Source of the DNA: Dehalococcoidia bacterium UBA6627
GTDB lineage: Bacteria; Chloroflexota; Dehalococcoidia; UBA2979
Length of the DNA stretch: 53,508 nt
Assembly (NCBI GenBank): GCA_002455955.1
Contig: DKLZ01000047.1
Span: forward strand, 1 to 53,508
Direction: 5' to 3'
Below, piece after piece: positions 4,337-33,307 of this stretch (position 1 is its first letter; each line of letters opens with the position of its first letter). Both the position numbers and the translations under genes were made by a program. The notes under the pieces were generated by a model. It was given only the letters and a program-made list of their open reading frames with translations, searched no databases and was not told the origin of the DNA.

Positions 4337-5749
4337 ATGTCCACGAACCCAGACATCGCCCTGATGGCACATCTCATGCGTCGAGCAGGATTCGGAACAA
4401 ACCGAGAAGAGCTAGAACAGCTTACGGAACAAGGCTATGAAGAAACTGTCGAGCAACTTGTCGATCCACCGTCGTCAATTCCTGGCGCTGATCAATATGA
4501 GCTCTTCCGGTACATGCCATCACTAGAAACCGGAGGACCTAACCCTGTTCCCGGCGCGGCAAATTTGCTCTATCACATGGTGAACACGCAACGCCATCTC
4601 GAAGAAAAGATGGCGTTCTTTTGGCATCATGTCTTCGCCACTGGAAACTCGAAAGTCGACAACGATCAGAATCTGACGATTCAACTTGATATGTTCCGCG
4701 AGCATGGTATGGGCAACTATCGAGACTTACTGATTCGCCTTTCTCAGAGCCCTGCGATGATCTATTGGCTCGATAACAATGAGAACCACAAGCGATCACC
4801 CAATGAAAACTGGGGACGAGAACTCCTCGAATTATTCTCACTTGGTGTTGGGAATTACACTGAAACTGATGTGTTTGAATGCGCAAGGGCCTTCACCGGC
4901 TGGACCATCAATCCTAAGATCCCTCGAACTCCATACCATCGCTTCGCATGGTCTTATTCATTTAGGCCGGAAGAGCACGACTACAGTGAAAAAACCTTCC
5001 TAGGGCATGTCGGGAATTTTAACGGCGATGACATCATCGATATCATCCTTCAACAGCCAGCATGTTCACGGTTTATCGCCCGACACCTGTATAACTTCTT
5101 TGTTGCCGACGAAGCCCAGGTGCCGGCATGGGATATCGAGCCGCCACGCGATCCTGAAGCTATCGATTTACTGGCAGGCACGTTTGTTGACTCAGGTTAC
5201 GAACTTCGGCCAGTTTTGCGAGTCTTGTTTAACTCCGATTTCTTTAAGGAAGCCCGTTTTAAGAAAGTGCGCAGCCCTGTTGAAGTAGTGGTAGGTGCTC
5301 TACGTACTACAGGCGATCTGCAAGGCCCCGACCCCAGATTGGTCGCGATCGCTCAGGAACCATCTCATATGGGTCAGGCTCTTCATAACCCACCGAGTGT
5401 TGAAGGCTGGCAAACTGGCCGTGATTGGATCAACAGCGGATCAGTCGTAAAGCGAATCAACTTCGTGGCGGATCAGGTAAGTAACACGGAGTTACCAGGA
5501 GTTCAGAAACTTGTACAACGTGTCCTTGTTTCGAGCGACAACCAAATCAAAGAGGAAGATTTGGTCGATCGCTGTCTCGATTTGATGGGGCCACTTGAAA
5601 TTTCGGAGGAGACACGCCGCGAACTTATCGCCTACGTTGAGGCGGAAGGTCCGGTGAAGATCTCACCAGACAATGGTCACGATACGGAACAGCGGGTCGC
5701 GGATATGTTGGCGCTGATCGCTGCGACTCCGGAATATCAGTTCGGTTAG
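4337..5749 (+). CDS. DUF1800 domain-containing protein
   Basis: It contains LMRRAGFG, FWHHVFATG, YWLDNNEN and WGRELLELFSLGVGNYTE, which are DUF1800 hallmarks. Start set at ATG 4337 (GGGAGAG upstream); the track ORF starts at TTG 4292. Confidence 0.8.
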   Translation: MSTNPDIALMAHLMRRAGFGTNREELEQLTEQGYEETVEQLVDPPSSIPGADQYELFRYMPSLETGGPNPVPGAANLLYHMVNTQRHLEEKMAFFWHHVFATGNSKVDNDQNLTIQLDMFREHGMGNYRDLLIRLSQSPAMIYWLDNNENHKRSPNENWGRELLELFSLGVGNYTETDVFECARAFTGWTINPKIPRTPYHRFAWSYSFRPEEHDYSEKTFLGHVGNFNGDDIIDIILQQPACSRFIARHLYNFFVADEAQVPAWDIEPPRDPEAIDLLAGTFVDSGYELRPVLRVLFNSDFFKEARFKKVRSPVEVVVGALRTTGDLQGPDPRLVAIAQEPSHMGQALHNPPSVEGWQTGRDWINSGSVVKRINFVADQVSNTELPGVQKLVQRVLVSSDNQIKEEDLVDRCLDLMGPLEISEETRRELIAYVEAEGPVKISPDNGHDTEQRVADMLALIAATPEYQFG

Positions 5750-10627: not shown

Positions 10628-12211
10628 CTACAAAGCGGCCAGCCAACGTTGTTTTCGACCCAGCATAGGTACGAGCTGCTCATAGGCATGATCAATCCAT
10701 TCGCTCAACATCGCTCGTGTGTCTCGTGGATCGATAATGTCTTCGATTTCGTAGGCTTCTGCGGCAGCAAACGGTGAACGCATCGCAACGAAACGTTCTT
10801 CGACTTGCCGACGTGCCTCATCAGGATCGTCACTTTCCTCAATTTCACGACGGTATGCTGCCTGAACCCCACCTTCGATAGGTAATGACCCCCACTCACC
10901 CGATGGCCATGCGACCCGAAAATTGAATCGTTCGTGATTTTGTTGACCGCCCCCTGCAACTCCATAAACTCGTCGAACTACGACAGACGCCCATGGAATC
11001 GTCGCCGAATATACTGCAGCAAGCCCGCGCAATCCTTGTTTCAATGTCCCTGATGCTTCAGCAGAACGCCCAATCATGAACCCAGGTTGATCCACGAAAT
11101 TCACGATCGGAAGATGAAATGTGTCACATAAATTGACAAATTTCTCCAATTTTTGTGCTGCATCGGCATCCATTGCGCCACCATGGACCAACGGATCGTT
11201 CGACAATATCCCAACCGGTCGACCACTGATACGAGCGAACATCGTGACTTGCGAACCACCGTAATAACGACCAATTTCGAAACTTGATCCACGATCGACT
11301 ATCAACTCGACAAGTTTTCGTGTGTCATACGGTTGATTTCGCTCACGGGGAATGATTGAGAGTAGTTCTTCTTCTCGCCGTCCTGCTGAATCATTTGTGA
11401 CCTGAGTTGGCGGCAATGTGAATACATTACTTGGCAGATATGACAAAAAGGTCCGGATGATTCGAAATGCATCAGCTTCGTCTTCAGCTTCGTTGTCGAC
11501 CAGCCCACTCCCACGCGCATGTACTCGGTAGCCCCCTAATTCTTCCTTATGGATGTTGTCACCCAATGCTCGCGACACGACTGGCGGACCAGCCGCGAAT
11601 ACCTGAGAGTTCTCTTTGATCATCACGGCAAAGTGGGCGCCGGCGATTTCAGCAGCAGGCAACCCGGCGACAGAGCCAAGTGCAGCAGAGACCACTGGGA
11701 CTTGGTTCATCATTTCGATCAACGTAGCCCATGTTTTATTTTGTGGGAGGTACGTTCTGCCACTACTAGCGATCTGGCGGATATCAGCGCCAAAACCATC
11801 AATCAGTCTGATCAGGGGCATCTTCATCCCAAGTGCCATTTCGTCGGCTTGACGTCCTTTGTTGCCTAGAGCGCCCTGAGTTGGAGTACCGGAATTAACA
11901 CCCTTGCCTCCACTCGTCGGTCGAACCGTGTAGTCCGAACCCTTCACTACCACCGAACGACCGTCGAGTTTTGCCAATCCAACCACAAGGGCATCTGAAC
12001 GGAAATCGGTCAGTTGTCCGTCTTCGTAACTACCGATTCCGGCTAATACCCCTCGCTCCCGAAAGCTACCGTCATCGACTAATTCATCAATCCGTTCACG
12101 AACAGTAAGTTTCCCATGTTCATGTTGCTGTCGGACTCGATCGTCGCCACCCATCCGATGAGCCAGATTGCGTCGCCGTTCTATTTCGTCGATTTCAGGT
12201 TGCCAGGTCAT
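10628..12211 (-). CDS. acyl-CoA carboxylase carboxyltransferase (beta) subunit
   Basis: Carboxyl-transferase domain pattern: GKLTVRERIDELVDDGSF and the paired N/C CT subdomains. Start set at ATG 12211 with AAGGA upstream; the track ORF extends to 12256. Confidence 0.85.
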   Translation of the reverse strand: MTWQPEIDEIERRRNLAHRMGGDDRVRQQHEHGKLTVRERIDELVDDGSFRERGVLAGIGSYEDGQLTDFRSDALVVGLAKLDGRSVVVKGSDYTVRPTSGGKGVNSGTPTQGALGNKGRQADEMALGMKMPLIRLIDGFGADIRQIASSGRTYLPQNKTWATLIEMMNQVPVVSAALGSVAGLPAAEIAGAHFAVMIKENSQVFAAGPPVVSRALGDNIHKEELGGYRVHARGSGLVDNEAEDEADAFRIIRTFLSYLPSNVFTLPPTQVTNDSAGRREEELLSIIPRERNQPYDTRKLVELIVDRGSSFEIGRYYGGSQVTMFARISGRPVGILSNDPLVHGGAMDADAAQKLEKFVNLCDTFHLPIVNFVDQPGFMIGRSAEASGTLKQGLRGLAAVYSATIPWASVVVRRVYGVAGGGQQNHERFNFRVAWPSGEWGSLPIEGGVQAAYRREIEESDDPDEARRQVEERFVAMRSPFAAAEAYEIEDIIDPRDTRAMLSEWIDHAYEQLVPMLGRKQRWLAAL

Positions 12212-12316
12212 ATCAGATCCTTCGCCATGTTCGCGTGGTCGATTCCACAATTCCAACTCGGATTTCGCGACAAAAATAATTTGCCGTTAATGAGCGTCAG
12301 ATAGAGAGGCCAGGAG

Positions 12317-13558
12317 TCACTCTGCATATGAGGTCAAGGCATCCAATGCTGGTTTGACCTCGCTCATAAACACTTCCAGATTACGAATGACGCTTTCCTT
12401 AGGTTGTTGCGCATAATGCACGATCAATGAGATGTACTCTGCCGGAAGAAGCTCCCACTGACGTACAAGCTTCTCTCTGACATCTTCGACCGAACCCCAT
12501 GCGTGAGTTTCGAGCCCTTCGAGTTGCTGCGCAAATTCTTCTAAAGATGCATCCACTGCCAACATTTTGGCTGGATTAGCCCCAGGGCGCGCCAATGCCA
12601 GTTGGTGATAAAAATTCCGTTGGATTTCAGCGTCGTATTTCCGCAGTGCCACACGAGCATGCTCACGAGTTTCACCGATCTGCAGCCATCGCGCCGTTGC
12701 CTGATTCTGCCCTAAGGCGAAATTGTGCCCCGCCTCATTCGCGGCTTGCTGATAAACGGAGCCATGTTCTTCTGCTTGTTCCACTCCTGAGAAGTAGATT
12801 GGGATAAATCCATTGCGAGCGGCAAATTCGATTGATTGCGCGCTTCCGGTTGTTGCAACAAAGATCGGAGGATGAGGTTTCGTATAAGGGGCCGGCACTA
12901 CCGAGACACGGCGGACTTTTCCATGCTCATCGAGCTCGTTAGGCGCGCCTAGACGTTTAGTTGTATCACTCATCCACCAATCGATACCGTCATCGTATGG
13001 GTAGGGGATCTGCCATGCTTTCGACTTACGTTCGATGGTCTCTTGAGTCCAAGACTCAATCACCATTTCGACATGCTCTTGAAACATCTCTCGGTTCGCG
13101 AGATCTGCCGAACCTCCATCCGATTGAGTCGCCACTGTTCCGAAATGCTGACCAATCACATTTGTCCAGCGATCCTGATAGCCACGAGCGAATCCAACGA
13201 AACACCGACCTTTCGAAAGATGATCAATGACAGCGACTTCTTCAGCTACGCGGATCGGGTTTTGCGTAGTCATTACGTAACCGAGTTGCCCGACACGTAT
13301 CTTTTTTGTGATTGCCGCCCAATAAGCGTCCATGATTCCCGGTGCCGGGCCTAATTCATAACCTTCTGAATGAAAATGATGCTCGATAGGTGCGACACCC
13401 CAGACGCCCAGATCGTCAGCTGCCATAACGATATCGTGAAGCCCATCGATAGCCTCTTGATAACGCTCAACATTCCTCCCGATCGGCCGAAGCATCTTCC
13501 GCTCATTTTCATCTTCTGCACGGATCATGGGGTAAACCTGCAAAATTACCTTTACCAT
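12317..13558 (-). CDS. LLM-class (luciferase-like) flavin/F420-dependent monooxygenase
   Basis: It contains EHHFHSEGYE and HLSKGRCFVGFARGY, which are typical of the bacterial luciferase-like family. Start at ATG 13558 with AAGGAG 6 nt upstream. Confidence 0.85.
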   Translation of the reverse strand: MVKVILQVYPMIRAEDENERKMLRPIGRNVERYQEAIDGLHDIVMAADDLGVWGVAPIEHHFHSEGYELGPAPGIMDAYWAAITKKIRVGQLGYVMTTQNPIRVAEEVAVIDHLSKGRCFVGFARGYQDRWTNVIGQHFGTVATQSDGGSADLANREMFQEHVEMVIESWTQETIERKSKAWQIPYPYDDGIDWWMSDTTKRLGAPNELDEHGKVRRVSVVPAPYTKPHPPIFVATTGSAQSIEFAARNGFIPIYFSGVEQAEEHGSVYQQAANEAGHNFALGQNQATARWLQIGETREHARVALRKYDAEIQRNFYHQLALARPGANPAKMLAVDASLEEFAQQLEGLETHAWGSVEDVREKLVRQWELLPAEYISLIVHYAQQPKESVIRNLEVFMSEVKPALDALTSYAE

Positions 13559-13766
13559 CCCCAACTCCTTAATCTGCAATCACTCCGTGAGATTTCGGAA
13601 CGTAAAGTAACTCCTCCTGTGGATTTACTCTTCATGAATCCGAAAGTCCACTCGAAAATTTCGATCGTTTGGTAACGTGCAAGAATCGCAACGGCTTTTG
13701 AACTGTAATGAGCAAATTACAGTTATCATCCCTGACAAGTTGACCTCTGCAGGCGGAGCACGATTT

Positions 13767-14804
13767 ATGACTACAACACGAGAGGCACGTAACCAACCAT
13801 TGGAGTTGGATGACGAAATGTCTGCAATCGCGTATTGCTATCAACAAGGTTGGACTGATGGTTTACCAGTCGTTCCACCCACGACCGCTCTAGTCGACGA
13901 AATGCTTGAAGCAAGTGGTGAGGACCCTGAATCGATTCTTGCTACGCATACGACAACAGGAAGACACTGCTCCGCTCATTCGGCCGCTGTAAATTCTGTG
14001 ATGGCTGGGTGCCTACCTGAATACTTTCCGATTGTCGCAGCAGCGCTCCGCGCTATGAGTCACAGGGAATACAACTATCACGGTTCGACAGCCAGTACAG
14101 GTGGAGCCGCTCCGTTGGTTATCGTTAGTGGGCCAATCGTTGATGCGATTGGCATGAACTCAGGTGTGAATACTTTCGGTTCCGGAAACCGACCAAATGC
14201 GACGATCGGCCGTGCAATTCGTCTCGTTCATCTGAACGTGTTCAAAATGGTTCCCGGTGTAACCGATCGATCAACGCAAGGCAATCCCGGCAAGTACAGC
14301 CTCTGCATAGCCGAAAACAGCCAGGCCAATCCATGGGCGTCGTTAGTAGAGGAATCCGGATTCCCGAGTGGTAGCTCTTGCGTGACTGTCTATGCAGCCA
14401 GTGCATTCCATAATATTGAAAACCATTACTCCTCAGAGGGAGATGGTGTACTAATGACAATTGCTGATTCGATGGCGAGTCTTGGTTCGTTAACTCACGG
14501 ACAGTCTGTCGTCGTACTTTCTCCTGAGCATGCCAGTATTGTGGCGCAAAACGGCCGCACGAAGCTACAAGTTCAAGAATTCCTCTTTGCTCATGCACAA
14601 CGCCCTATTGAAGAACTGCGTAAAGTCGGCAAAGGTGGTAAAGCAAAGGAAGAACAATTCCATCGTGGATTAAGCCCAGACGATATTCTGGTAACGGTTG
14701 CAGGTGGGGAAGCAGGTGGGCATTCAGCCTTCTTGCCATCATGGAGTCGAATGCGCGGCTCAGTCATGCAGACTGAAATAATCAAGCCGATTTCAAAAGA
14801 TTGA
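13767..14804 (+). CDS. uncharacterised conserved-looking protein (345 aa), first gene of the selenoprotein module
   Basis: A long ORF with GGAG 9-10 nt upstream of ATG 13767. It contains GWTDGLPVVPPT near the N-terminus. I cannot assign a family. Its stop is 13 nt before the next gene. Confidence 0.6.
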   Translation: MTTTREARNQPLELDDEMSAIAYCYQQGWTDGLPVVPPTTALVDEMLEASGEDPESILATHTTTGRHCSAHSAAVNSVMAGCLPEYFPIVAAALRAMSHREYNYHGSTASTGGAAPLVIVSGPIVDAIGMNSGVNTFGSGNRPNATIGRAIRLVHLNVFKMVPGVTDRSTQGNPGKYSLCIAENSQANPWASLVEESGFPSGSSCVTVYAASAFHNIENHYSSEGDGVLMTIADSMASLGSLTHGQSVVVLSPEHASIVAQNGRTKLQVQEFLFAHAQRPIEELRKVGKGGKAKEEQFHRGLSPDDILVTVAGGEAGGHSAFLPSWSRMRGSVMQTEIIKPISKD

Positions 14805-14817
14805 CCCGGAGGCGAAG

Positions 14818-15363
14818 ATGGCATTGCAGTTATATGACCCAACAATCGACGACATGAAGGCCCGTGATACCTCGGAAGCTCAACGGCTACCGAGCTTGGA
14901 GAACTGCACGATTGGCCTACTAACAAACGGTAAGGTGAATGCCGACATATTGTTACGAGAAGTAGGGTCTCTCTTCGAGCAACGCAATAATTGTCGTGTT
15001 CTTCTCGAAGAGAATAAGGGCAATGCGTCGCGACCTGCACCAGCAGAACTCCTCCAACAAATTGCTGCCGACGTTGACTTTATGGTGACGGCAGTCGGTG
15101 ACTGAGGAAGTTGCTCAACGTGCAGTGTGCACGATGGCATTTCATTCGAGCAGCTCGGTAAGCCCGCGCTGGTAATCTGTACACATCCTTTTACACCGAC
15201 CAGCCAAGCGACTGCGTCAACTCTCGGTATTCCTGACTATACGGTTGCCTTCGTCGATCATCCGATTGGAAGTTGCAGCCTAGATGGGTTACGCGAGCGA
15301 GCAGAGGATGTTTACCAGCAAGCATCGGCAATTTTACTCGGCAACTCAGCTACCCCCGAATAA
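14818..15363 (+). CDS. UGSC-motif selenoprotein candidate (181 aa, Sec at codon 96 encoded by TGA 15103-15105)
   Basis: Track ORFs 14818..15105 and 15127..15363 are in the same frame. They are separated only by one TGA and 7 sense codons. Read-through gives VTAVGD-U-GSCSTCSVHDG. GGAGG lies 5 nt upstream of ATG 14818, but there is no SD before GTG 15127. A hairpin follows the TGA. Confidence 0.7.
15107..15143 (+). promoter_or_regulatory. candidate bacterial SECIS stem-loop
   Basis: Perfect upper stem CGUGCA (15119-15124) / UGCACG (15128-15133) with apical loop GUG, starting 13 nt after the UGA. An imperfect lower stem spans 15107-15117 / 15135-15143. Confidence 0.5.
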
Positions 15364-15374
15364 CGGATCGGATA

Positions 15375-16304
15375 GTGACTGAAACTCCCGAATTCGAGCT
15401 CGCCATTATCGGTGGTGGCTTTACCGGATTAACGGCTGGACTGATAGCTGCTCGTGCAGGTCTCAATGTAAAATTGTTCGACAGGATGGGTCCTGGTGGA
15501 CAGTTGATCAACATCGATCGTGTCGATAATTATCCTGGGCTTCCCACTGGTATCGCTGGTTATGAGCTCGGACCTGCAGCGTTGGAACAAGCCCTCGATG
15601 CCGGAGTAAAAATCGACTATGGGGAAATCGACGGCCTTACATTCGACGGTGAACACTGGCAGCTCATCACCAACACAGGTGTAGTCACTGCCTACGCTGT
15701 CATCGTCGCAACTGGATCCGAACTCGCGAAACTCGGACTTGATGGTGAAGAAGAACTTCACGGATCCGGGATCTCCTATTGCGCAACATGCGATGCAGAA
15801 TTTTTCCGTGATCAAGACATCATGGTCGTAGGCGGTGGTGATTCTGGCCTCGATGAAGTGCTCGTTTTGGCACCTGTTGTGCGGTCAATCACACTTGTAA
15901 CACGTGGTGAGCTTGATGGCGCCGCAACCACGGTCAACGCGGTGAGAGCACTAGAAAACGTAACAATCCACTGCAACACAACTCTGACCGAACTGCACGG
16001 AACTGCACAATTGGAAGGTGTTTCCGTTATTCATCGTGAAAATGGCGAAACTGCACATCTCAAGGTGAGCGGCCTTTTCATTTACGTTGGCCTAAACGCC
16101 AATACTTCGCTGTTAGAAGGTCTTATACCTCTTGATACAGCTGGTCATGCTCAAGTAGATATCATGATGGCTACGGAACAACCTGGTCTTTTCGTTGCTG
16201 GTGACCTGCGAGCTGGATCGGTACGGCTTCTCGCCAGCTGTGCAGGCGATGGTGCAACAGCAGCCGTAGCAGCTGAAAGATATATCCGGTCAACTCTAGG
16301 CTAA
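15375..16304 (+). CDS. thioredoxin-disulfide reductase-like FAD-dependent oxidoreductase
   Basis: It has IIGGGFTGLTAG (FAD), the redox-active CATC in SYCATCDAEFF, VVGGGDSGLDE (NAD(P)H) and a C-terminal GLFVAGD motif. Start set at GTG 15375, 11 nt after the previous stop; the track ORF from 15273 overlaps the upstream gene. Confidence 0.85.
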   Translation: MTETPEFELAIIGGGFTGLTAGLIAARAGLNVKLFDRMGPGGQLINIDRVDNYPGLPTGIAGYELGPAALEQALDAGVKIDYGEIDGLTFDGEHWQLITNTGVVTAYAVIVATGSELAKLGLDGEEELHGSGISYCATCDAEFFRDQDIMVVGGGDSGLDEVLVLAPVVRSITLVTRGELDGAATTVNAVRALENVTIHCNTTLTELHGTAQLEGVSVIHRENGETAHLKVSGLFIYVGLNANTSLLEGLIPLDTAGHAQVDIMMATEQPGLFVAGDLRAGSVRLLASCAGDGATAAVAAERYIRSTLG

Positions 16305-16318
16305 GTATCTTTCCACTC

Positions 16319-17347
16319 TTATAGAGAAAACTCGGGAAAAAGGTATTCCTTAACTCGCTGCAGCAATTGAACAGCACGTTTATGATCTATGCCCGGTGGC
16401 ATACGAATAATGGTGCCATCGAGTGGAACCTCTTTCAGTCGTTGTTTAAAGAGATCAACAATCCGCTCTGGACCACCTACAAATATCTCCGAACCGTCAC
16501 GCATTTCTTCTGGGGTAGATGCCGGCTGAGCATATGGTTTCCGGCCGTCTGCTATTGCTGCTTCAGAAGCCCATTGGGCGTAATGCAAGTACGAATGGTA
16601 GAGATGTTCACGTGATTCCTCCCAGGCGCTCGCATCATCTTCTCCTAGCCAAAAGTCACGACTGTCGTACACAGGGATCGATTTAGGGTCACGATTGTTT
16701 CGCAACATCGCCGCTCTAAATGCTTCGTAGACATTTGATCCGCCGACCATATGGAATCCGTCAGCCAACCGGGCAACTCGCTCCAACGCTGTGTCACGCG
16801 TTGCTCCAATCCAGATTGGGGGGCCGCCATCTTGGAATGGTTTCGGTTCCACCCGTACCCCCTGAAGTTGGTATCGCTTACCGGTGAAGTCGAACTCGTG
16901 TTCATTCCAACCTCGACGGATAATTTCGATACCTTCCTCAATGAGTGAGGGTCGATAGCGACGATTGACCCCAAACGCTGGATATTCCTGCGGTCGATAT
17001 CCAACTGCGATTCCGAGAACGAAACGGCCTTCTGACATTATGTCTATAACTGCTGCGTCTTCAGCGATCCGTACTGGATGATGAAGCGGCAGCAGCATCA
17101 ATCTTGTGCCTATTGTGATTTTTGAGGTTCGATCAGCTGCTGCTGCTGCGACCGGAAGCACCGACGGACAATAGCCATCATCAGCACCATGATGTTCCGA
17201 TATCCAGACGCTATCGAACCCTAACTCTTCAGCGATGACGATCTGCTCCAGAGTTTCTTGATATACCTGAGGCCATGGCTTCTGCCATTGAGAAGGATTA
17301 CGTAGCGAAAAAAGGACGCCAAATTTTAGAGTCATCTTTGTACTCAT
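16319..17347 (-). CDS. LLM-class F420/flavin-dependent oxidoreductase
   Basis: It contains AEELGFDSVWISEHH and SEGRFVLGIAVGY, which are typical luciferase-like family motifs. Confidence 0.85.
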   Translation of the reverse strand: MSTKMTLKFGVLFSLRNPSQWQKPWPQVYQETLEQIVIAEELGFDSVWISEHHGADDGYCPSVLPVAAAAADRTSKITIGTRLMLLPLHHPVRIAEDAAVIDIMSEGRFVLGIAVGYRPQEYPAFGVNRRYRPSLIEEGIEIIRRGWNEHEFDFTGKRYQLQGVRVEPKPFQDGGPPIWIGATRDTALERVARLADGFHMVGGSNVYEAFRAAMLRNNRDPKSIPVYDSRDFWLGEDDASAWEESREHLYHSYLHYAQWASEAAIADGRKPYAQPASTPEEMRDGSEIFVGGPERIVDLFKQRLKEVPLDGTIIRMPPGIDHKRAVQLLQRVKEYLFPEFSL

Positions 17348-17374
17348 TTCTAAATGAGCCTGAAGTCATCGCAA

Positions 17375-18484
17375 TCAGTGGCTACTGGCAGCCTCGCCAC
17401 TCACGCGATCAAACTGTTCCATCGCTTCTTCCACTAAACTGTACACAACCTCAGCAGCTGGTTTGATCTCGTGAATCCCTACGACAGCCTGACCAGCTGG
17501 TGTGGTCATCCAGTCTTCAAGACGTGCTTCACGAATACCTGCAAGAGTCTGATCCACTAGCATACCTTGCAAAGGCATCTGTAACGGTTCAGGGGAATCT
17601 GGCTGTTTCCATGCATCCGACCAGTTCGAGCGCAGCTGCCGAATCGGCTTACCGGACATGGCCCGCGACTGCACTGCGTCCTCGACTTTTGCTTCAATTA
17701 TTCGTTGCTTGAGAAACATCTCAGTTTCCGATTCATGAGTGGCGAGCCAAATAGTACCTGTCCAGATTCCATCCGCGCCCATAGCCAGTGATCCAGCAAG
17801 GTGCTTCCCATTCGAAACTCCACCTGCTGCTAACACGAGGGTGTCTGTTCCTTCTGCTATCTCAACGACCTCAGGAACGAGGGTAAAGGTTCCAACCGTC
17901 CCGCTATGGCCACCAGAGTCATAGCCTTGTGCAATGACTACATCTACCCCAGCTTCGACCTGCCGACGCGCTTGTCGCGGCAATCCAACAAGACCCCATA
18001 CTCGCGTGCCGACTGCATGAGCCTCTTCGATAATGAAAGCTGGACTTCCAAGGCCGGAAGCGAAGATTGGGACACGCTCTTCAAAGACTACTTCGAGTAA
18101 TTCACGTGCATCACGAAGTAAATTTGGAGATCCAGTACCACCGTCGTGGCGTGGTTTCCCTTCACTGATTCCGTTCTCTTTCCGAAGCCCTTCAAGGAAG
18201 TCTCGATGACCTTGAGGAATTAATTCTTCGAGATCTTCGCGGTTCCCCTCGACAAACGAAGCAGGCACGAGCAGATCAACTCCGAACGGTTTGTCACCAA
18301 CACGTTCCTTGATCCACCGGACATCCGATCGTAGTTCATCAGGAGTCCGCCCAACGCCTCCGAGAATGCCAATGCCACCAGCATTTGTGACGGCGACGAT
18401 TACATCTTTGGTGTGCGCAAACGCACATATTGGTACTTCACATCCGTACTCATCGCAAAGCCGTGTGTGCATAGGGTTTAACAT
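17375..18484 (-). CDS. nitronate monooxygenase (NMO / 2-nitropropane dioxygenase, FabK-like) family protein
   Basis: It contains VTNAGGIGILG and VIAQGYDSGGHSG, which are FMN TIM-barrel NMO hallmarks. Start set at ATG 18484 with GGAGAG 7 nt upstream; the track ORF extends to 18583. Confidence 0.85.
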   Translation of the reverse strand: MLNPMHTRLCDEYGCEVPICAFAHTKDVIVAVTNAGGIGILGGVGRTPDELRSDVRWIKERVGDKPFGVDLLVPASFVEGNREDLEELIPQGHRDFLEGLRKENGISEGKPRHDGGTGSPNLLRDARELLEVVFEERVPIFASGLGSPAFIIEEAHAVGTRVWGLVGLPRQARRQVEAGVDVVIAQGYDSGGHSGTVGTFTLVPEVVEIAEGTDTLVLAAGGVSNGKHLAGSLAMGADGIWTGTIWLATHESETEMFLKQRIIEAKVEDAVQSRAMSGKPIRQLRSNWSDAWKQPDSPEPLQMPLQGMLVDQTLAGIREARLEDWMTTPAGQAVVGIHEIKPAAEVVYSLVEEAMEQFDRVSGEAASSH

Positions 18485-18522
18485 TGATTGCTCTCCGATC
18501 ATGGTGCCCACTGATTGTAGAC

Positions 18523-18559
18523 TCTTGTTCACTCGTTCGCTGCGAACGAGTGAACAAGA
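18523..18559. repeat. 17-bp perfect inverted repeat (3-nt loop) between the carboxylase and NMO genes
   Basis: TCTTGTTCACTCGTTCG-CTG-CGAACGAGTGAACAAGA. On the + strand it is followed by TGTTTTTT; on the - strand there is no U-tract. Confidence 0.8.
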
Positions 18560-18586
18560 TGTTTTTTCGAACGAACGACACAAAAG

Positions 18587-21500
18587 CTACCAAGTGTCGA
18601 GGAATCGGTTACGCCCTCGTCGAATTGGATCAGGTGCCGGAGTAGATTTCAAACCTTGAATGATCCAGTAACGAGTTTCGGCAGGATCGATAACATCATC
18701 GATTTCAAATGTAGATGCCACGTTTATCGATCCTCCGCGTTCGTAGGCCTCGGCTAAGAGGCGTTCATACTCACTTGCACGTTCTTCGATATCATCGATT
18801 GCTGCTAACCGGTCACGGTTAGACAACTGAACGCTAGCTTCTTGATTCATGCCCCCATGCTCACCGGTCGGCCAAGCTACAGTGAACAGCGGAGCACGGC
18901 TGCTACCTGTTAGCTGTGCCATCGAGCCAAGTGCGTAACCCTTCCTCAAAATTACGGCGAAACGTGGAGTCTCCAGATTAGCGCCAGTTACAAAGAGCCT
19001 GGCACAGTGTCGGATCAGACCACTCTTCTCTACGTCTGGTCCCACCATCATGCCGGGTGTATCAACTAACGAAATGATCGGAATGTTCCAGGCGTCACAG
19101 AGTTGCCAGAACCGAGCCACTTTATCGGATCCATCACTATCAATTGCGCCACCGATGTACTCGTTATTGTTACATGTGAGACCGAAAGGACGCCCTTCGA
19201 TACGGACGAATGCCGTGATCATCCCGATACCAAATTCAGGACGAAGCTCAATTACGGAGTCTTTATCTGCGAGAATCTCGATCACTTCACGGACGTTAAA
19301 ACTCCTCATTCGATTTTCAGGGATTATGTGACGCAATTTCCTCTGATCGTGCATTTCCCAATCATCAACTCTGCCTTGGAAGTAAGAGAGTAGCTTCTTA
19401 CTGGTGTCGATCGCTTCACTGTGATCCTTAACAACGATGTCAACGGACCCGGCTGGGGCTAGATCGGACATTGCTCCGACTTCTTCCGGTAAAAACGCTC
19501 CCATGCCGCTACCTTCGATCACGGCAGGACCGCCCATTGCAATCAAGGCATCCTCTGTCGCAATGATGATGTCAGTACAGCCAAGAATTGCGGCATTACC
19601 TGCGTAACACCATCCTGCGGTCACTCCGATAATCGGCACTTTGCCACTCAGTTCAGCAAGTCGTGCCCACGTAGCACCAGTTCCACCGAAACCACGTGCT
19701 GGATCTCCATCACTATCTCCAGATCGCCCTCCAGCTCCTTCGGCATGAAAAATGACCGGAAGTGACATCTCGTTCGCGAGCTCCAGCATGCGATCTGTTT
19801 TCATATGACCGTGCCCACCCTGTGTTCCAGCGAACACAGTGTCGTCATATGAAATAAAAACGGTTCGAGCACGTTCTTCGTCAAATAGATCACCATTCAC
19901 ACTGCCGATCCCCATGACTAAACCATCGGCGGGTGTTTTCCAGATCAATTCATCAAGAGGTCTCTTGCGGCGTTGGCGGGCAATGACTAATCCGCCGTAC
20001 TCAACCCACGTGTCGGAATCGATCAGTTGTGAAATGTTCTCGCGTACGGTTTTGCGATTTCGACTATGCCGTCGCTCGACAGCCGCCGGTCGATTTTCAT
20101 CCAGTAGAAATTTACGACGGTCAAAGAGCGCTTGTAGATCAGGACGGATGTAATCCAAATCTACTTCAGGCGAGGATTCCGTGATCTCGCTGCCGACATC
20201 CATTTCTTCGATGAACGCCAACGGATGGTCTTCATACACAACGGTTCCGGTCGATACGGTCACCTGTCGAATTACTCCACCTTGCGGTGCGTAAACAAGG
20301 TGCTCCATTTTCAATGCGCTCATAACGAACAGTTGCTGTCCTTTCCGCACCGCATCTCCCTCTGAAATATTAATTTCAATCACTGTGCCTTGCAGGGGGG
20401 CAGTGATAGGGATCGTGTTTGGCGGCCCGATGACCGCAATTTGCGTTTCTCTTTCCGTGCGTGTCGCTTCGCCTGAACGGAAATATTCCAGAGATGCCAG
20501 TGGGTCACGCGCATCTAGGGAAGCACCGGCCTGACTGGTAGATTCACCGTCAGGTTGCCCTGTCCTTTCGGGATGTATTGCGAGCGCGCTGACTTTCTCA
20601 TCAATCCATCGCGTATGAACATGGCCTTTGTGGAAGTCTTCGTGTCTTAGCACATTCAGGAGGAACGGTATGTTCGTTTCGACGCCATCGATTTCGAATT
20701 CTTCCAGTGCTCGAGTCGTTCGTCGGATAACGTCTTGAAAATTATCGGATGTGGAATGGCCGATCACTTTAGCAATTAAAGAATCAAAATTAGGGTTCGT
20801 TGCGTATCCATGATATCCATAACTATCAATGCGAACTCCCGGACCTGACGGTGCTTCGAATGTATCCAGCGTGCCGCCAGTCGGGATTATTTGCCCATCG
20901 GTGTTAATCCGTTCGGTATTGACGCGAGCCTGAATCGCAAAGCCGCGTGGTCTCGGAATCTCAAATTGCTCCAGGCCAAGATCAGCAAGAGTTTCGCCAC
21001 CAGCCAAACGCAATTGGGCTTGTACTAAATCGATCCCTGTCACCTCTTCAGTAACCGTATGTTCAACTTGCAATCGAGCGTTCGCCTCAATGAAAGCGAA
21101 ATCACCATCGGAAGAATCGTCTACGAGAAACTCCACAGTACCGAGGCTTTGATAGTTCGCAGCTTTAGCTATCTTGATCGCTGCAGCTGCGATCGCTTCC
21201 CGTTGCGAGTCTGACAGGTACGGACTGGGAGCAATTTCTAATAGTTTTTGATGGCGTCGTTGCACACTGCATTCACGTTCTCCGAGGTGACTCAACGATC
21301 CTGTAGAGTCGCCAATTACTTGAATTTCAATATGGCGTGCACGCGGGATAAGACGTTCAACATAAACTCTGCCATCACCGAACGCCGCAGCAGCTTCTGA
21401 GCTGGCACGCTGGTACGCAGAAGCAACGTCTTTCGCATCAGTCACAAGGCGCATTCCGCGACCGCCACCACCGCTAATTGCCTTAATTAACATCGCGGGA

Positions 21501-21985
21501 CCGGCATTTGAATCTTTCCCATTGCTAGCGGTTGCCAGGCTCGTAAAAAACGATTCTGCTTCTTCAAGATTGACTGAACTAGTGCTTCCAGAGAGCACAG
21601 GAACTCCGGCGTGTTCAGCCAACGCACGTGCACGTGATTTATCGCCAAACACGTCGAGTGTTTCCGCAGTAGGACCGACAAAGGTCAATCCAGCTTCTGC
21701 ACATGCGGAGGCCAATGTCGCATTCTCTGAAAGGAATCCGTAACCAGGATGTACAGCATCACATCCCTGCTCAATAGCAGCAGTAATTATTCCTTCGACA
21801 TTCAAATAAGCTGGCGCACCTGTACCACTAAGCTGGTACGCATCATCTGCCTTTCTCACAGCAAGAGAATTCGCATCATCTTCGGAGAATGTCACCACAG
21901 TCGGGATTCCTAGGTCGGCAGCAGCGCGGATGATGCGCATCGCTATTTCACCACGGTTCGCCACCAACAGTTTCGATAAACTCAT
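18587..21985 (-). CDS. single-chain multidomain acyl-CoA carboxylase (biotin carboxylase + BCCP + carboxyltransferase)
   Basis: N-terminal LLVANRGEIAMRIIRAA biotin carboxylase ATP-grasp, a central biotinyl motif VMSALKMEH, and a C-terminal carboxyltransferase of about 510 aa. Start set at ATG 21985; the track ORF extends to 22057. Confidence 0.85.
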   Translation of the reverse strand: MSLSKLLVANRGEIAMRIIRAAADLGIPTVVTFSEDDANSLAVRKADDAYQLSGTGAPAYLNVEGIITAAIEQGCDAVHPGYGFLSENATLASACAEAGLTFVGPTAETLDVFGDKSRARALAEHAGVPVLSGSTSSVNLEEAESFFTSLATASNGKDSNAGPAMLIKAISGGGGRGMRLVTDAKDVASAYQRASSEAAAAFGDGRVYVERLIPRARHIEIQVIGDSTGSLSHLGERECSVQRRHQKLLEIAPSPYLSDSQREAIAAAAIKIAKAANYQSLGTVEFLVDDSSDGDFAFIEANARLQVEHTVTEEVTGIDLVQAQLRLAGGETLADLGLEQFEIPRPRGFAIQARVNTERINTDGQIIPTGGTLDTFEAPSGPGVRIDSYGYHGYATNPNFDSLIAKVIGHSTSDNFQDVIRRTTRALEEFEIDGVETNIPFLLNVLRHEDFHKGHVHTRWIDEKVSALAIHPERTGQPDGESTSQAGASLDARDPLASLEYFRSGEATRTERETQIAVIGPPNTIPITAPLQGTVIEINISEGDAVRKGQQLFVMSALKMEHLVYAPQGGVIRQVTVSTGTVVYEDHPLAFIEEMDVGSEITESSPEVDLDYIRPDLQALFDRRKFLLDENRPAAVERRHSRNRKTVRENISQLIDSDTWVEYGGLVIARQRRKRPLDELIWKTPADGLVMGIGSVNGDLFDEERARTVFISYDDTVFAGTQGGHGHMKTDRMLELANEMSLPVIFHAEGAGGRSGDSDGDPARGFGGTGATWARLAELSGKVPIIGVTAGWCYAGNAAILGCTDIIIATEDALIAMGGPAVIEGSGMGAFLPEEVGAMSDLAPAGSVDIVVKDHSEAIDTSKKLLSYFQGRVDDWEMHDQRKLRHIIPENRMRSFNVREVIEILADKDSVIELRPEFGIGMITAFVRIEGRPFGLTCNNNEYIGGAIDSDGSDKVARFWQLCDAWNIPIISLVDTPGMMVGPDVEKSGLIRHCARLFVTGANLETPRFAVILRKGYALGSMAQLTGSSRAPLFTVAWPTGEHGGMNQEASVQLSNRDRLAAIDDIEERASEYERLLAEAYERGGSINVASTFEIDDVIDPAETRYWIIQGLKSTPAPDPIRRGRNRFLDTW

Positions 21986-22121
21986 TGTCCTGCCTCTCTT
22001 AGAATGAGACCCATCATCCTGCTGCAGGGAGAGAATACGCGATGCTACTGCGCCCACCGTAATTCAATAGAGACACAGCGTAAGACTGACTATATAAGAA
22101 GAGGGTGAGATCGGAGCAATA

Positions 22122-29763: not shown

Positions 29764-30815
29764 CTGCTAAAGCAAATCTTGATATCCACGCGATTCCTGA
29801 AGAAGGAACCACATCTTCTCATCTTCCTTCAGGTCGCTGGCCGCATCACGACATGCTCGATCTTGATAATTGCAGGCGCCCTGACATTGAGGTTGTCCTC
29901 ACTCTCGCTGATCGTATGAGGGAGATTCTCGACCGTAGGATTCCACGCGTACCTGCTCTGCGTGGATACACCATCGTCAATCTCTTCTATGAGCCATCAA
30001 CAAGAACTCGTGTCTCTTTCGAGTTAGCAGGGAAGGTGCTCGGAGCTGACATAATCAGTGTGAGCACAAACACCTCGTCGGTGGTCAAGGGCGAATCTCT
30101 GATTGATACCGTACGCACACTCCGCGCCATGCGATCCGATGCTGTAGTAATGCGGCATCCAATGGCAGGCGCACCTTACCTCGCTGCTCAACACACAGAT
30201 GCGTCCATCATCAATGCAGGCGATGGAGCACATGCACACCCAACTCAAGCCCTCCTGGATCTTTACACCATGCATCGCTCTATTGGAGATATCGCCGGCA
30301 AAAAGATCGTAATGGTTGGTGACATAGCTCATTCTCGTGTAGCACGCTCAGACTTGTGGGGACTCACAACAATGGGTGCACATGTTGTTGTTTGTGGCCC
30401 ACCGACGCTCCTCGCTCTTGGAATGCGCGTCAGTGATCGTCCGTCCCATGCTGAAAATGCACTCCCGCCAGTGACAATAGAAACTAATATCGATCAAGCG
30501 ATCGAAGATGCCGATGTTGTGATGGCACTTCGATTACAAAGTGAACGGCAGGAAGGTGGTCTACTCCCTTCCTTGCACGAATACGCCACCCACTACCAGG
30601 TAACAGCAGAGCGTCTAGCACGTGCAAAACCCGACCACCTCCTGATGCACCCTGGTCCAAAAAACGAGGGCATTGAGATTGCTGCTGATGTTGCAGGAGG
30701 TTCGCATTCAATCATCGAGGATCAGGTAACAAACGGTGTCGCCGTCAGGATGGCACTTTTATACCTCCTATCTGGACGGATCGAACCAGAAGAAGTTACG
30801 GAATTATCAACGTGA
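29760..30815 (+). CDS. pyrB: aspartate carbamoyltransferase catalytic subunit
   Basis: It has the STRTR and HPTQ motifs. The ATGA start/stop overlap with pyrR supports the start, which gives an N-terminal extension of about 30 aa. Confidence 0.9.
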   Translation: MTAKANLDIHAIPEEGTTSSHLPSGRWPHHDMLDLDNCRRPDIEVVLTLADRMREILDRRIPRVPALRGYTIVNLFYEPSTRTRVSFELAGKVLGADIISVSTNTSSVVKGESLIDTVRTLRAMRSDAVVMRHPMAGAPYLAAQHTDASIINAGDGAHAHPTQALLDLYTMHRSIGDIAGKKIVMVGDIAHSRVARSDLWGLTTMGAHVVVCGPPTLLALGMRVSDRPSHAENALPPVTIETNIDQAIEDADVVMALRLQSERQEGGLLPSLHEYATHYQVTAERLARAKPDHLLMHPGPKNEGIEIAADVAGGSHSIIEDQVTNGVAVRMALLYLLSGRIEPEEVTELST

Positions 30816-32158
30816 GTACGGTGGCCATCCATAACGGACGTGTAATCGATCCTGCACTTAGTCGGGACGGCATCGCTGATGTGGTCATCGTTGATGGTCG
30901 TGTCGCCCGAGTCGGACCGAATGAAGGCGAGATGGTAGTCGAAGCAGATCGTATAGACGCTACAGGCCTCATCGTCACCCCCGGGTTCGTTGATCTACAA
31001 GTCCATCTTCGTGAGCCAGGAGCTGAGCATCAGGAAACTATCGCAAGCGGTACGAAAGCAGCGGCACGAGGTGGCTTTACGACTATATGCGCTATGCCTG
31101 GCACTGACCCACCCATTGACAGTCGTGCCGCTGTCGAATCTGTACTTCGAGAAGCTGAAGCTTCGGCTGCAATCCGTGTGTTGCCTCTAGGTTGCATCAG
31201 CGCGAATCGAGCTGGTGAATTACTAGCACCGGCTGGTGAGTTGGCCGGTGCGGGGGTAGTTGCGCTTACAGACGATGGTCAAGCCGTTGCCGATCCGAAT
31301 TTAATGCGTCACGCAATGCAGTATTCCACTCGTTTCGGACTACCCATCGCCCAGCATCCGGAGGACCCCGCTCTCGTTGCTGGAGGGCAAATGCATGAAG
31401 GTTGGGTCGCTACCCGTCTAGGGCTCCGGGGCCGCCCAGCTAGCGGCGAAGCAACAATGGTGGCACGCGATATCGCTCTCGCGGAGCTCACTGGCGCACA
31501 CCTGCACGTCTGCGACGTTTCAACAGCAGGATCTGTCGCACTCATCCGAGCGGCGCGCGAGCGGGGTGTACACATCACAGCTTCAGCAACACCACATCAC
31601 CTAACACTCACACATGAGCGTGTAGCTTTTGCAGAATCTTCATATGAGCAGATTCAGTACGACTCCAGTGCAAAAGTGTTTCCACCGTTACGCGAGGAGT
31701 CCGACATTACTGAAATCGCCAAAGCATTGAGAGATGGCGTTGTCGACGCAATTACAACTGATCACACTCCGGTGAGCTCTATGGAGAAAGACATCGAATT
31801 TGATCTTGCCATTCCAGGGATAAGTGGGCTCGAAACAGCTTTCGGACTGAGTATGCGTCTCGTCGAAAGGCAACAAGTGGACTTAGCTACACTGATCGAG
31901 CGCTTCACGATCGGGCCCGTTCGTGCATGGGCATTAGACCGTCAACCTGGCCTCGAGGGCTTGGGCTCATTAACACCAGGTGGAGTTGGAGATCTTCTCG
32001 TAATTGATCCGGCCGTTGAATGGACAGTCGACCCTGAGAATTTTTCTTCCCTCGGGCGAAATACACCGCTCGCAGGCGAAACTTTGACGGGGCAGGTCAT
32101 CGCGACCATTTTCGATGGCCAACTCGCCTATAAAAACAAATCTTTGACAGCATTATGA
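30812..32158 (+). CDS. pyrC: dihydroorotase (class I)
   Basis: The DLQVHLREPG metal-binding motif is present. The GTG start overlaps the pyrB stop (GTGA). Confidence 0.9.
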   Translation: MSTVAIHNGRVIDPALSRDGIADVVIVDGRVARVGPNEGEMVVEADRIDATGLIVTPGFVDLQVHLREPGAEHQETIASGTKAAARGGFTTICAMPGTDPPIDSRAAVESVLREAEASAAIRVLPLGCISANRAGELLAPAGELAGAGVVALTDDGQAVADPNLMRHAMQYSTRFGLPIAQHPEDPALVAGGQMHEGWVATRLGLRGRPASGEATMVARDIALAELTGAHLHVCDVSTAGSVALIRAARERGVHITASATPHHLTLTHERVAFAESSYEQIQYDSSAKVFPPLREESDITEIAKALRDGVVDAITTDHTPVSSMEKDIEFDLAIPGISGLETAFGLSMRLVERQQVDLATLIERFTIGPVRAWALDRQPGLEGLGSLTPGGVGDLLVIDPAVEWTVDPENFSSLGRNTPLAGETLTGQVIATIFDGQLAYKNKSLTAL

Positions 32159-32179
32159 TCGAGGGATGCTAAGCCAATC

Positions 32180-33307
32180 ATGACGACTGATGACACACCT
32201 TCATTGTTCACCAACCGCCCGCCTGCACGTCTCGTTCTTGCGGACGGTCGTTACTTCGATGGAGTCTCCATCGGCAAGGCAGCACGTACGACAGGTGAAG
32301 TAGTCTTCACGACATCGATGACCGGATATCAGGAAGCGCTCACTGACCCTTCCTACCGCGGACAAATATTGACCATGACATATCCGATCCAAGGCAACTA
32401 TGGAACGAGTGCACGCTCTGCAGAGAGTAATCACCTCCAAGTACGTGGTTTCGTCGTTCGTGAGCTCACCGATCTGCCATCGCACTGGCAAAGCTCATCG
32501 ACACTAAACCACTACCTTGAGCACCATCAGATCCCCGGTATAGCTGAAATAGATACTCGAGCTCTCACACGTCACCTCCGATCACGGGGGGTGATCATGG
32601 GAACGATCACCCATGATGAGACCGTAGACGAAGCTCTTACGCGCCTTCAAAATGAACCAAACTACGAAGGGCAAGACTATGTCAGCAACGTTTCTACACC
32701 CAATCGATACCAGTTCAACGCCGACAACCCAGCTCCAAGTGGAGACCAGATCCACGTCGTTGTCTTAGATCTCGGAGTAAAGCGCAACATCATGCGGCTC
32801 CTCCACCAGCGTGGCTGCAGGATCACCGCAGTACCACACGACACTCACGCTGAAGAAATCATGGCTTTGAAACCCGCAGGTGTTTTGATTTCTCCAGGTC
32901 CGGGTGATCCAACACTCCTTGATAACGTTGTCGACACTGCCAGAGAACTGATCGGCCAAACTCCCATCATGGGTATTTGCCTAGGGCATCAGGTGGTCGG
33001 ACGAGTATTTGGTGCCGGCGTATATAAATTAAAGTTTGGACACCGTGGTGCGAATCACCCAATCCGAGATGAAATTACGGGACGAGTTTTCGTTACTTCT
33101 CAAAATCATGGATTCGCCATCGACGATCACCTTGATAGTGACGTTACTGTCTCTCAGATTCATCTAAATGACGGCACAGTAGAAGGACTGCAGCATTCAA
33201 AAGAACCAGTATTTACGATCCAATATCACTCTGAGGCCTCTCCAGGGCCTAACGACACAGAATTCTTATTTGACCGATTCATGGCCACTGTCCGAGGAGA
33301 CGCATAG
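32180..33307 (+). CDS. carA: carbamoyl-phosphate synthase small (glutaminase) subunit
   Basis: It has an N-terminal CPSase small-chain domain and a class I amidotransferase domain with the GICLGHQ active site. Confidence 0.95.
   Translation: MTTDDTPSLFTNRPPARLVLADGRYFDGVSIGKAARTTGEVVFTTSMTGYQEALTDPSYRGQILTMTYPIQGNYGTSARSAESNHLQVRGFVVRELTDLPSHWQSSSTLNHYLEHHQIPGIAEIDTRALTRHLRSRGVIMGTITHDETVDEALTRLQNEPNYEGQDYVSNVSTPNRYQFNADNPAPSGDQIHVVVLDLGVKRNIMRLLHQRGCRITAVPHDTHAEEIMALKPAGVLISPGPGDPTLLDNVVDTARELIGQTPIMGICLGHQVVGRVFGAGVYKLKFGHRGANHPIRDEITGRVFVTSQNHGFAIDDHLDSDVTVSQIHLNDGTVEGLQHSKEPVFTIQYHSEASPGPNDTEFLFDRFMATVRGDA

Follow-up and report, generated by a model that had tools for sequence, protein, structure and literature searches.

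The window analyzed here, a stretch of 53,508 nucleotides from the Dehalococcoidia bacterium UBA6627, carries on its forward strand a gene of the UGSC (seleno)protein family, which extends from 14818 to 15363 and is read as 181 codons by way of an in-frame UGA; its delineation is based on the translation, on matches to two family models and on an alignment of 26 homologues. A Shine–Dalgarno element, GGAGG, is situated at 14808–14812 (+), 5 nt ahead of the ATG at 14818, just as the initial annotation of this DNA had placed it. Immediately upstream on the same strand is a conserved partner gene, 13677–14804, which codes for 375 amino acids from the GTG at 13677 (public gene callers choose the ATG at 13767, yielding 345 amino acids). 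Since its stop codon, TGA 14802–14804, lies only 4 nt before the Shine–Dalgarno element of the UGSC gene, the two genes look translationally coupled. Downstream, 12 nt past the UGSC stop, is a gene (15375–16304, +; start according to the public gene call in locus L004) coding for a CATC-containing, TrxB-like FAD/NAD(P)H disulfide reductase. This protein matches PF07992 (1.5e-29) and reaches 263.5 bits with TIGR01292, short of the 343 set as the cutoff for that model.

The UGSC gene sits within a catabolic cluster that spans 10628–22057 and includes genes for a carboxyltransferase (10628–12256), two luciferase-like monooxygenases (12317–13579 and 16319–17347), a nitronate-monooxygenase-like enzyme (17375–18583) and an ORF of 1,156 amino acids (18587–22057), whose translation resembles, by eye, a fused biotin carboxylase/carboxyltransferase. 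The rest of the window is taken up by housekeeping and catabolic genes: a pyr operon, CoA-transferases (three of family III lie outside the cluster), luciferase-like monooxygenases, carboxylases and MFS transporters.

The split reading frame and the UGSC family

The UGSC gene is visible in the sequence as two ORFs, 14818–15105 and 15127–15363, which share a common frame and are separated by nothing but TGA 15103–15105 and seven sense codons (GGA AGT TGC TCA ACG TGC AGT). The joined frame is open from the GTG at 15127 to TAA 15361–15363, so that the product is 181 amino acids long with an in-frame stop at codon 96. The translation at the junction reads ...TAVGD-*-GSCSTCSVHDG..., and the predicted selenocysteine-containing peptide would be ...TAVGD-U-GSCSTCSVHDGISFEQLGK. 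The initial annotation had proposed this very arrangement, and the shared frame, the TGA with its seven codons, the length and the position of the stop were all reproduced. It had also anticipated that standard gene callers would break such a gene apart; indeed, the public records feature two products of 95 and 78 amino acids, both unnamed; these occur on contigs as long as 74 kb, and near-identical members of their clusters on contigs as long as 131 kb. A similar-looking junction elsewhere in the window, where carA (from 32180) follows pyrC (which ends at TGA 32156–32158) in frame after seven codons (30812–33307, +), was considered as a second split gene and dismissed, for this is a plain pyrC stop before carA, with both genes being full-length.

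A trivial explanation for the interruption would be a sequencing or assembly error in a codon that is really TGC or TGT, for which a difference of a single base would suffice. However, the identical gene, TGA included, recurs in independent TARA, ENA and Logan assemblies (L004–L008 and L157), and at least 10 contigs, which derive from different samples and assemblers independent of one another (TARA, ENA and Logan runs of the DRR and ERR series), carry the N-terminal product that ends at the TGA, with the same neighbors. Hence, we hold such an error to be extremely unlikely. The probability that UGA has been reassigned to a sense codon throughout the genome (genetic code 4 or 25) is smaller still and practically nil: stop-codon usage in the window refutes it, as 18 of the 45 long ORFs terminate at TGA, among them those for a CoA-transferase and pyrC, whose products have full-length Pfam matches.

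When the UGA is represented by cysteine, the joined protein matches the NCBIfam model NF041046, “UGSC family (seleno)protein”, with 138.1 bits (cutoff 125; residues 31–173 against positions 4–146 of 147) and the Pfam model PF24696, “UGSC family”, with 170.6 bits (cutoff 25; residues 5–174 against positions 2–171 of 172). Both matches span the TGA junction. The identification as a UGSC protein offered in the initial annotation is thus borne out: both curated cutoffs are passed, the [U/C]-G-S-C signature falls in the conserved column and a single chain of about 180 residues runs over both halves. A database search with the joined protein recovered 75 homologues, nearly all of about 179 amino acids, with at most 43% identity and mostly from Actinomycetota. 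Microbacterium and Nesterenkonia are among the actinomycetes that possess a Cys form, with cysteine in place of the UGA-encoded residue. The alignment of 26 homologues, a check that the initial annotation had called for, continues across the TGA without a break in conservation; all full-length homologues display a cysteine in the TGA column, within a nearly invariant GDCGSCS motif, and UGA codon 96 (15103–15105, +) is hence aligned with the invariant cysteine of GD-C-GSCS in the cysteine-containing (Cys) forms. One short homologue, P0073 (103 amino acids), begins with the same MHDGISFEQLGKPALVIC as the second ORF of the window; its locus on a 4.59-Mb contig presents the same TGA and has likewise been mis-called as two halves, of which the C-terminal one is 58% identical to that of the window protein.

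The UGSC family has been in the literature for some time. [quoted passage not shown] According to reviews from 2022 and 2026, its function is still uncharacterized (PMC9312934, PMC13188914). Because UGSC has been published as a selenoprotein family since 2007–2008, the gene in the window is a mis-called member of a known family; what is new is an additional member that was split by gene callers, the family itself having already been described. The window protein agrees with the family, whose prototype is ABI76733.1 of H. neptunium, a culturable bacterium with a Sec form, in its length of about 180 amino acids, its motif column, its marine metagenomic origin and the hairpin directly after the UGA. 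The full-length database proteins closest to it, which are Cys forms, show only about 42% identity, and the closest Sec form found shows 58% across the C-terminal half. The genes are arranged in its lineage as partner, UGSC and TrxB-like reductase; other than that, the window protein does not differ in kind from the rest of the family.

To survey the occurrence of the UGA itself, metagenomes were scanned with a pattern that demanded a TGA at the Sec column (A-V-G-D-TGA-G-S-C-S), which matched in at least 120 stretches. With all loci pooled, 127 of the 131 TGA-pattern sites among the matches listed combine a UGSC HMM match with at least 80 open codons past the TGA. A separate contig scan used a back-translated GDCGSC pattern, and for this reason returned only Cys forms, which served as neighborhood data and as a negative control. 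The UGA is thus in frame, aligned with a cysteine of the homologues and followed by conserved coding sequence, and we conclude that it is very probably decoded as selenocysteine, as judged from these sequence comparisons.

The alternative that the TGA is a true stop, leaving a 95-residue fragment, perhaps together with a 78-residue protein initiated at the GTG at 15127, in a split or decaying gene, has in its favor that public callers annotate exactly these two products and that no selenocysteine machinery is seen in the window. We nevertheless judge it very unlikely. Such a break would fall at the junction of strand 3 and helix 3 of one compact domain, in the most conserved motif of the family, and yet 127 diverse genes among the matches listed have this TGA and keep the frame open beyond it. 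Moreover, the second ORF has no Shine–Dalgarno element and its GTG start lies inside a hairpin (described below) that is specific to the TGA forms. With respect to the machinery, selA, selB, selD and tRNA-Sec were all absent from the 53.5 kb of the window, a span too short for this to be informative, and tblastn with an E. coli SelD query matched neither the window nor any of 208 loci. A tRNA-Sec with the anticodon TCA is, in turn, encoded at 1878–1974 (–) on the metagenome contig L178, about 2 kb from a gene for a Sec-form UGSC–partner fusion.

A SECIS-like hairpin downstream of the UGA

In bacteria, the SECIS consensus is a stem-loop that directly follows the UGA and has a G or U in its apical loop, about 16–37 nt downstream. 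The window features a corresponding SECIS-like hairpin at 15107–15143 (+), with a core formed by 15119–15124 and 15128–15133, a GUG loop at 15125–15127 and a bulged lower stem. It starts 4 nt from the U of the UGA, and its GUG loop begins 19 nt past the end of that codon; counted from the U of the UGA, the 6-bp core occupies +16 to +21 and +25 to +30 and the apical loop +22 to +24, a register common to the subfamily to which the window gene belongs (group A). Hence, a stem-loop 3′ of the UGA with its GUG loop at +22 to +24 agrees with the consensus. In keeping with the initial annotation, which had located the GTG of the second ORF in the loop region, GTG 15127–15129 begins with the final base of the loop and extends into the 3′ arm. 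The predicted folding energy is −15.1 kcal/mol (z = −2.27; 6 of 200 shuffled sequences fold as well). Searches with Rfam at gathering thresholds reported only tRNAs in the window, with no curated model detecting the hairpin.

A comparison of 63 unique Sec forms of group A with 78 Cys forms in the same register, used as a control, separates the two sets: the complete 6-bp core is present in 56 of the 63 Sec forms versus 6 of the 78 Cys forms, and a GUN loop in 59 of 63 versus none of 78. Across the 43 distinct sequences, 86.8% of the cells of the core are paired, versus 15–50% when the 3′ arm is slid, and the covariation score of the core is 0.273 versus 0.106 in shuffles, a value reached by none of 500 shuffles. 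Double-sided changes are seen at the three central pairs in 8, 6 and 7 sequences, and the variants of the stem include GUGCA/UGCAC, GUGGA/UCCAC, GCGCA/UGCGC and GGCCA/UGGCC. Relative to codon-position shuffles, the Sec forms also fold better than the Cys forms (p = 1e-5). These pair counts were taken on coding sequence, and a part of the helix conservation reflects constraint on the protein; the Cys-form control argues against this being its whole cause.

The effect of the stem extends to the residues that follow the UGA. In the window gene, the SECIS stem is formed by codon +6 (UGC, the third cysteine) on one side and codon +9 (CAC, histidine) on the other, and Ser +7 (AGU) provides the GU of the loop. 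Among the Sec forms the residues at +6 and +9 shift jointly (C/H, W/H, W/R, R/R, A/A and Y/Y), with +6 being C, W, A, R, G or Y, whereas in the Cys forms +6 is S or A and +9 is A. It is strongly supported that in the related Sec forms the hairpin of the window is kept in register by compensatory changes, even at the expense of altering the residues at +6 and +9. Because the +6 residue tracks the SECIS stem, the third cysteine of UxxCxxC is not a family feature: the initial annotation had likened this motif to that of selenoprotein B, and the window protein does contain it, but on sequence comparison the conserved motif of the family is [U/C]-G-S-C only. The UGSC locus is thus a clear example of a SECIS stem dictating the amino acids after selenocysteine.

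The hairpin also bears on the question of which tRNA reads the UGA. One alternative is readthrough by a near-cognate or suppressor tRNA inserting cysteine or tryptophan, independently of SelB and tRNA-Sec; in its favor, many homologues function with a cysteine at this site. A hairpin with SECIS-type spacing and a GU loop that is conserved and covaries only in the TGA forms speaks against this mechanism, as do the tRNA-Sec adjoining the family member in L178 and the consistent classification of the family with SECIS-bearing selenoproteins (PMC2398784); we accord it a small chance. The central proposal of the initial annotation, namely one split gene coding for a UGSC selenoprotein with a predicted selenocysteine at codon 96, thus draws support from three directions: the scores against the family models, the cysteine of the homologues and the covarying, TGA-specific hairpin.

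The Sec forms of a second group (group B, with GSCTK[YFH]..., mostly fusions, e.g., those of L162 and L198) are devoid of the group A hairpin. They display another, weaker candidate hairpin nearer to the UGA, UGCACNAAGUACCUUGUGUA, which suggests a second SECIS type within the UGSC family.

Predicted fold and relationship to known selenoproteins

UGSC has been described as “likely” Trx-like in fold (PMC2398784). The AlphaFold model of the Cys-form homologue P0001, which shares about 40% identity with the window protein, instead presents a flavodoxin-like (beta-alpha)5 domain with five strands (pLDDT 92), wherein the Cys/Sec position and the cysteine three residues on are placed at the N-terminus of helix 3. 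The PDB fold matches of this model are flavodoxin-like or lumazine-synthase-like (TM about 0.4), with no thioredoxin-like fold among them, and a PDB sequence search with the UGSC profile returned nothing meaningful. Accordingly, from this homologue at about 40% identity, we disfavor a thioredoxin fold for UGSC. The thioredoxin-fold selenoproteins with UxxC or CxxU motifs (Trx-like, Prx-like and SelW-like), among which UGSC is placed in the literature, nevertheless share several features with it, namely a two-residue redox motif with selenocysteine in place of one cysteine, its location at a helix N-terminus and the existence of Cys orthologues; UGSC differs from them in that its predicted fold is flavodoxin-like.

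A different relationship is hinted at by selenoprotein B of the GrdB, GrdF, GrdH and PrdB type (TIGR01917, TIGR01918), in which, as in UGSC, selenocysteine is followed by a cysteine at +3. The window protein obtains 15.9 bits against the selenoprotein B model, versus a cutoff of 602. Seven of ten diverse Sec forms weakly match GrdB-, GrdF-, GrdH- or PrdB-family models, two of these seven being without the third cysteine, and the best GrdB-type match has E = 3.4e-5 and 23 bits, versus cutoffs of 65–800. The matches always fall at positions of about 300–420 of these models of about 431 residues, which we take to be their Sec-bearing C-terminal part. A Pfam scan of 31 Cys forms at E = 10 yielded no GRDB (PF07355) match. 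We regard the GrdB/PrdB similarity, as seen in these sequence profiles, as real but remote and sub-threshold.

The gene contexts offer a further comparison. A thioredoxin-reductase-type gene adjoins the UGSC gene in the window, and grd clusters likewise have an adjacent gene of this type. However, UGSC does not include the N-terminal region of GrdB; grdA, grdE, grdC, grdD, prdA and other genes of the reductase complexes are absent from the vicinity of the window gene; and its surroundings, with luciferase-like monooxygenases and carboxylases, resemble those of an aerobic marine heterotroph, unlike the amino-acid fermentation of selenoprotein B. We accordingly do not assign UGSC to selenoprotein B, given the scores far below the cutoffs, the lack of conservation of UxxCxxC and the absence of complex genes nearby.

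The partner protein and a proposed redox module

The most persistent companion of the UGSC gene is the upstream partner. It is adjacent to UGSC in 85 of 88 loci, and in the Sec-form metagenome loci among the matches listed it is adjacent in 70 of 116 and missing from only one locus that is well flanked on both sides. In 43 readthrough frames, of about 545–600 amino acids, UGSC continues at its C-terminus into the partner; a frame of this kind with 573 residues is present in L109/L190. A fusion of UGSC to a domain named Unknown_1 has been reported (PMC2398784); from the fusions that we observe, the partner would correspond to Unknown_1, and the UGSC–partner fusion is very probably the “UGSC/Unknown_1” protein of that study. 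Such genes also occur in pairs: locus L095 (2823 and 8928) encodes two paralogous Sec-form UGSC–partner fusions about 6 kb apart, and L115 does so as well. In L094, with the TGA at 4378 (+), the UGSC–partner readthrough frame stays open for about 560 additional codons ahead of the UGSC domain, and its total of 1,113 codons may represent a larger fusion.

The partner protein has more than 6,100 homologues, all labeled “hypothetical”. It gave no Pfam or NCBIfam match even at E = 10, and PDB sequence searches with the single sequence and with a profile returned nothing meaningful. Its invariant residues include C54, C210, the GWTDGLPVVPP motif, H135, an S-T-G-G motif, H250 and H349. The structure model has a pLDDT of 80; its fold matches, to the class I fumarate hydratase alpha subunit and to Toblerone-fold hydrolases, are at TM of about 0.2–0.3 and are not relied upon here.

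The TrxB-like gene is a more restricted associate, occurring in 14 of the 116 Sec-form loci among the matches listed and thus in a minority of UGSC loci. The UGSC–TrxB-like arrangement is conserved in the closest relatives of the window locus (L090, L157, L174 and L208), and we infer the TrxB-like protein to be a candidate electron donor for UGSC.

Taken together, we regard it as highly probable that the locus encodes a single 181-residue UGSC protein in which the UGA specifies selenocysteine, with a redox pair that would serve the partner and be recharged by the TrxB-like protein. According to this proposal, selenocysteine would be inserted at codon 96 in a SelB-dependent manner, and the U-x-x-C pair, placed at the N-terminus of a helix, would cycle between the selenol/thiol and selenenylsulfide states. 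UGSC would thereby serve the upstream 375-residue protein as a redox or catalytic partner, and, in the lineage of the window, electrons from NAD(P)H would pass via the TrxB-like flavoprotein to recharge the U-x-x-C pair. The functional coupling of UGSC to the partner and to the TrxB-like protein is proposed here from gene order and fusions.

More tentatively, one might envisage UGSC and the 375-residue partner as a widespread two-component selenoenzyme, wherein UGSC, as a separate protein, would be distantly related to the Sec part of selenoprotein B, the partner would carry the substrate site and the TrxB-like protein would feed in electrons in the lineage of the window. We consider this broader scheme less likely than not; if true, it would place reductase chemistry in aerobic marine heterotrophs and soil actinomycetes.

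For annotation, the consequence is that the two unnamed public fragments should be merged into one selenoprotein CDS. For the family, which ranks among the ocean's most abundant selenoprotein families, four leads could make function testable: the linkage and fusion to the partner, the predicted flavodoxin-like fold, the remote similarity to selenoprotein B and the neighboring TrxB-like gene. The interest of this locus stems not from the UGA itself, but from the unexplored module formed by UGSC and its partner.
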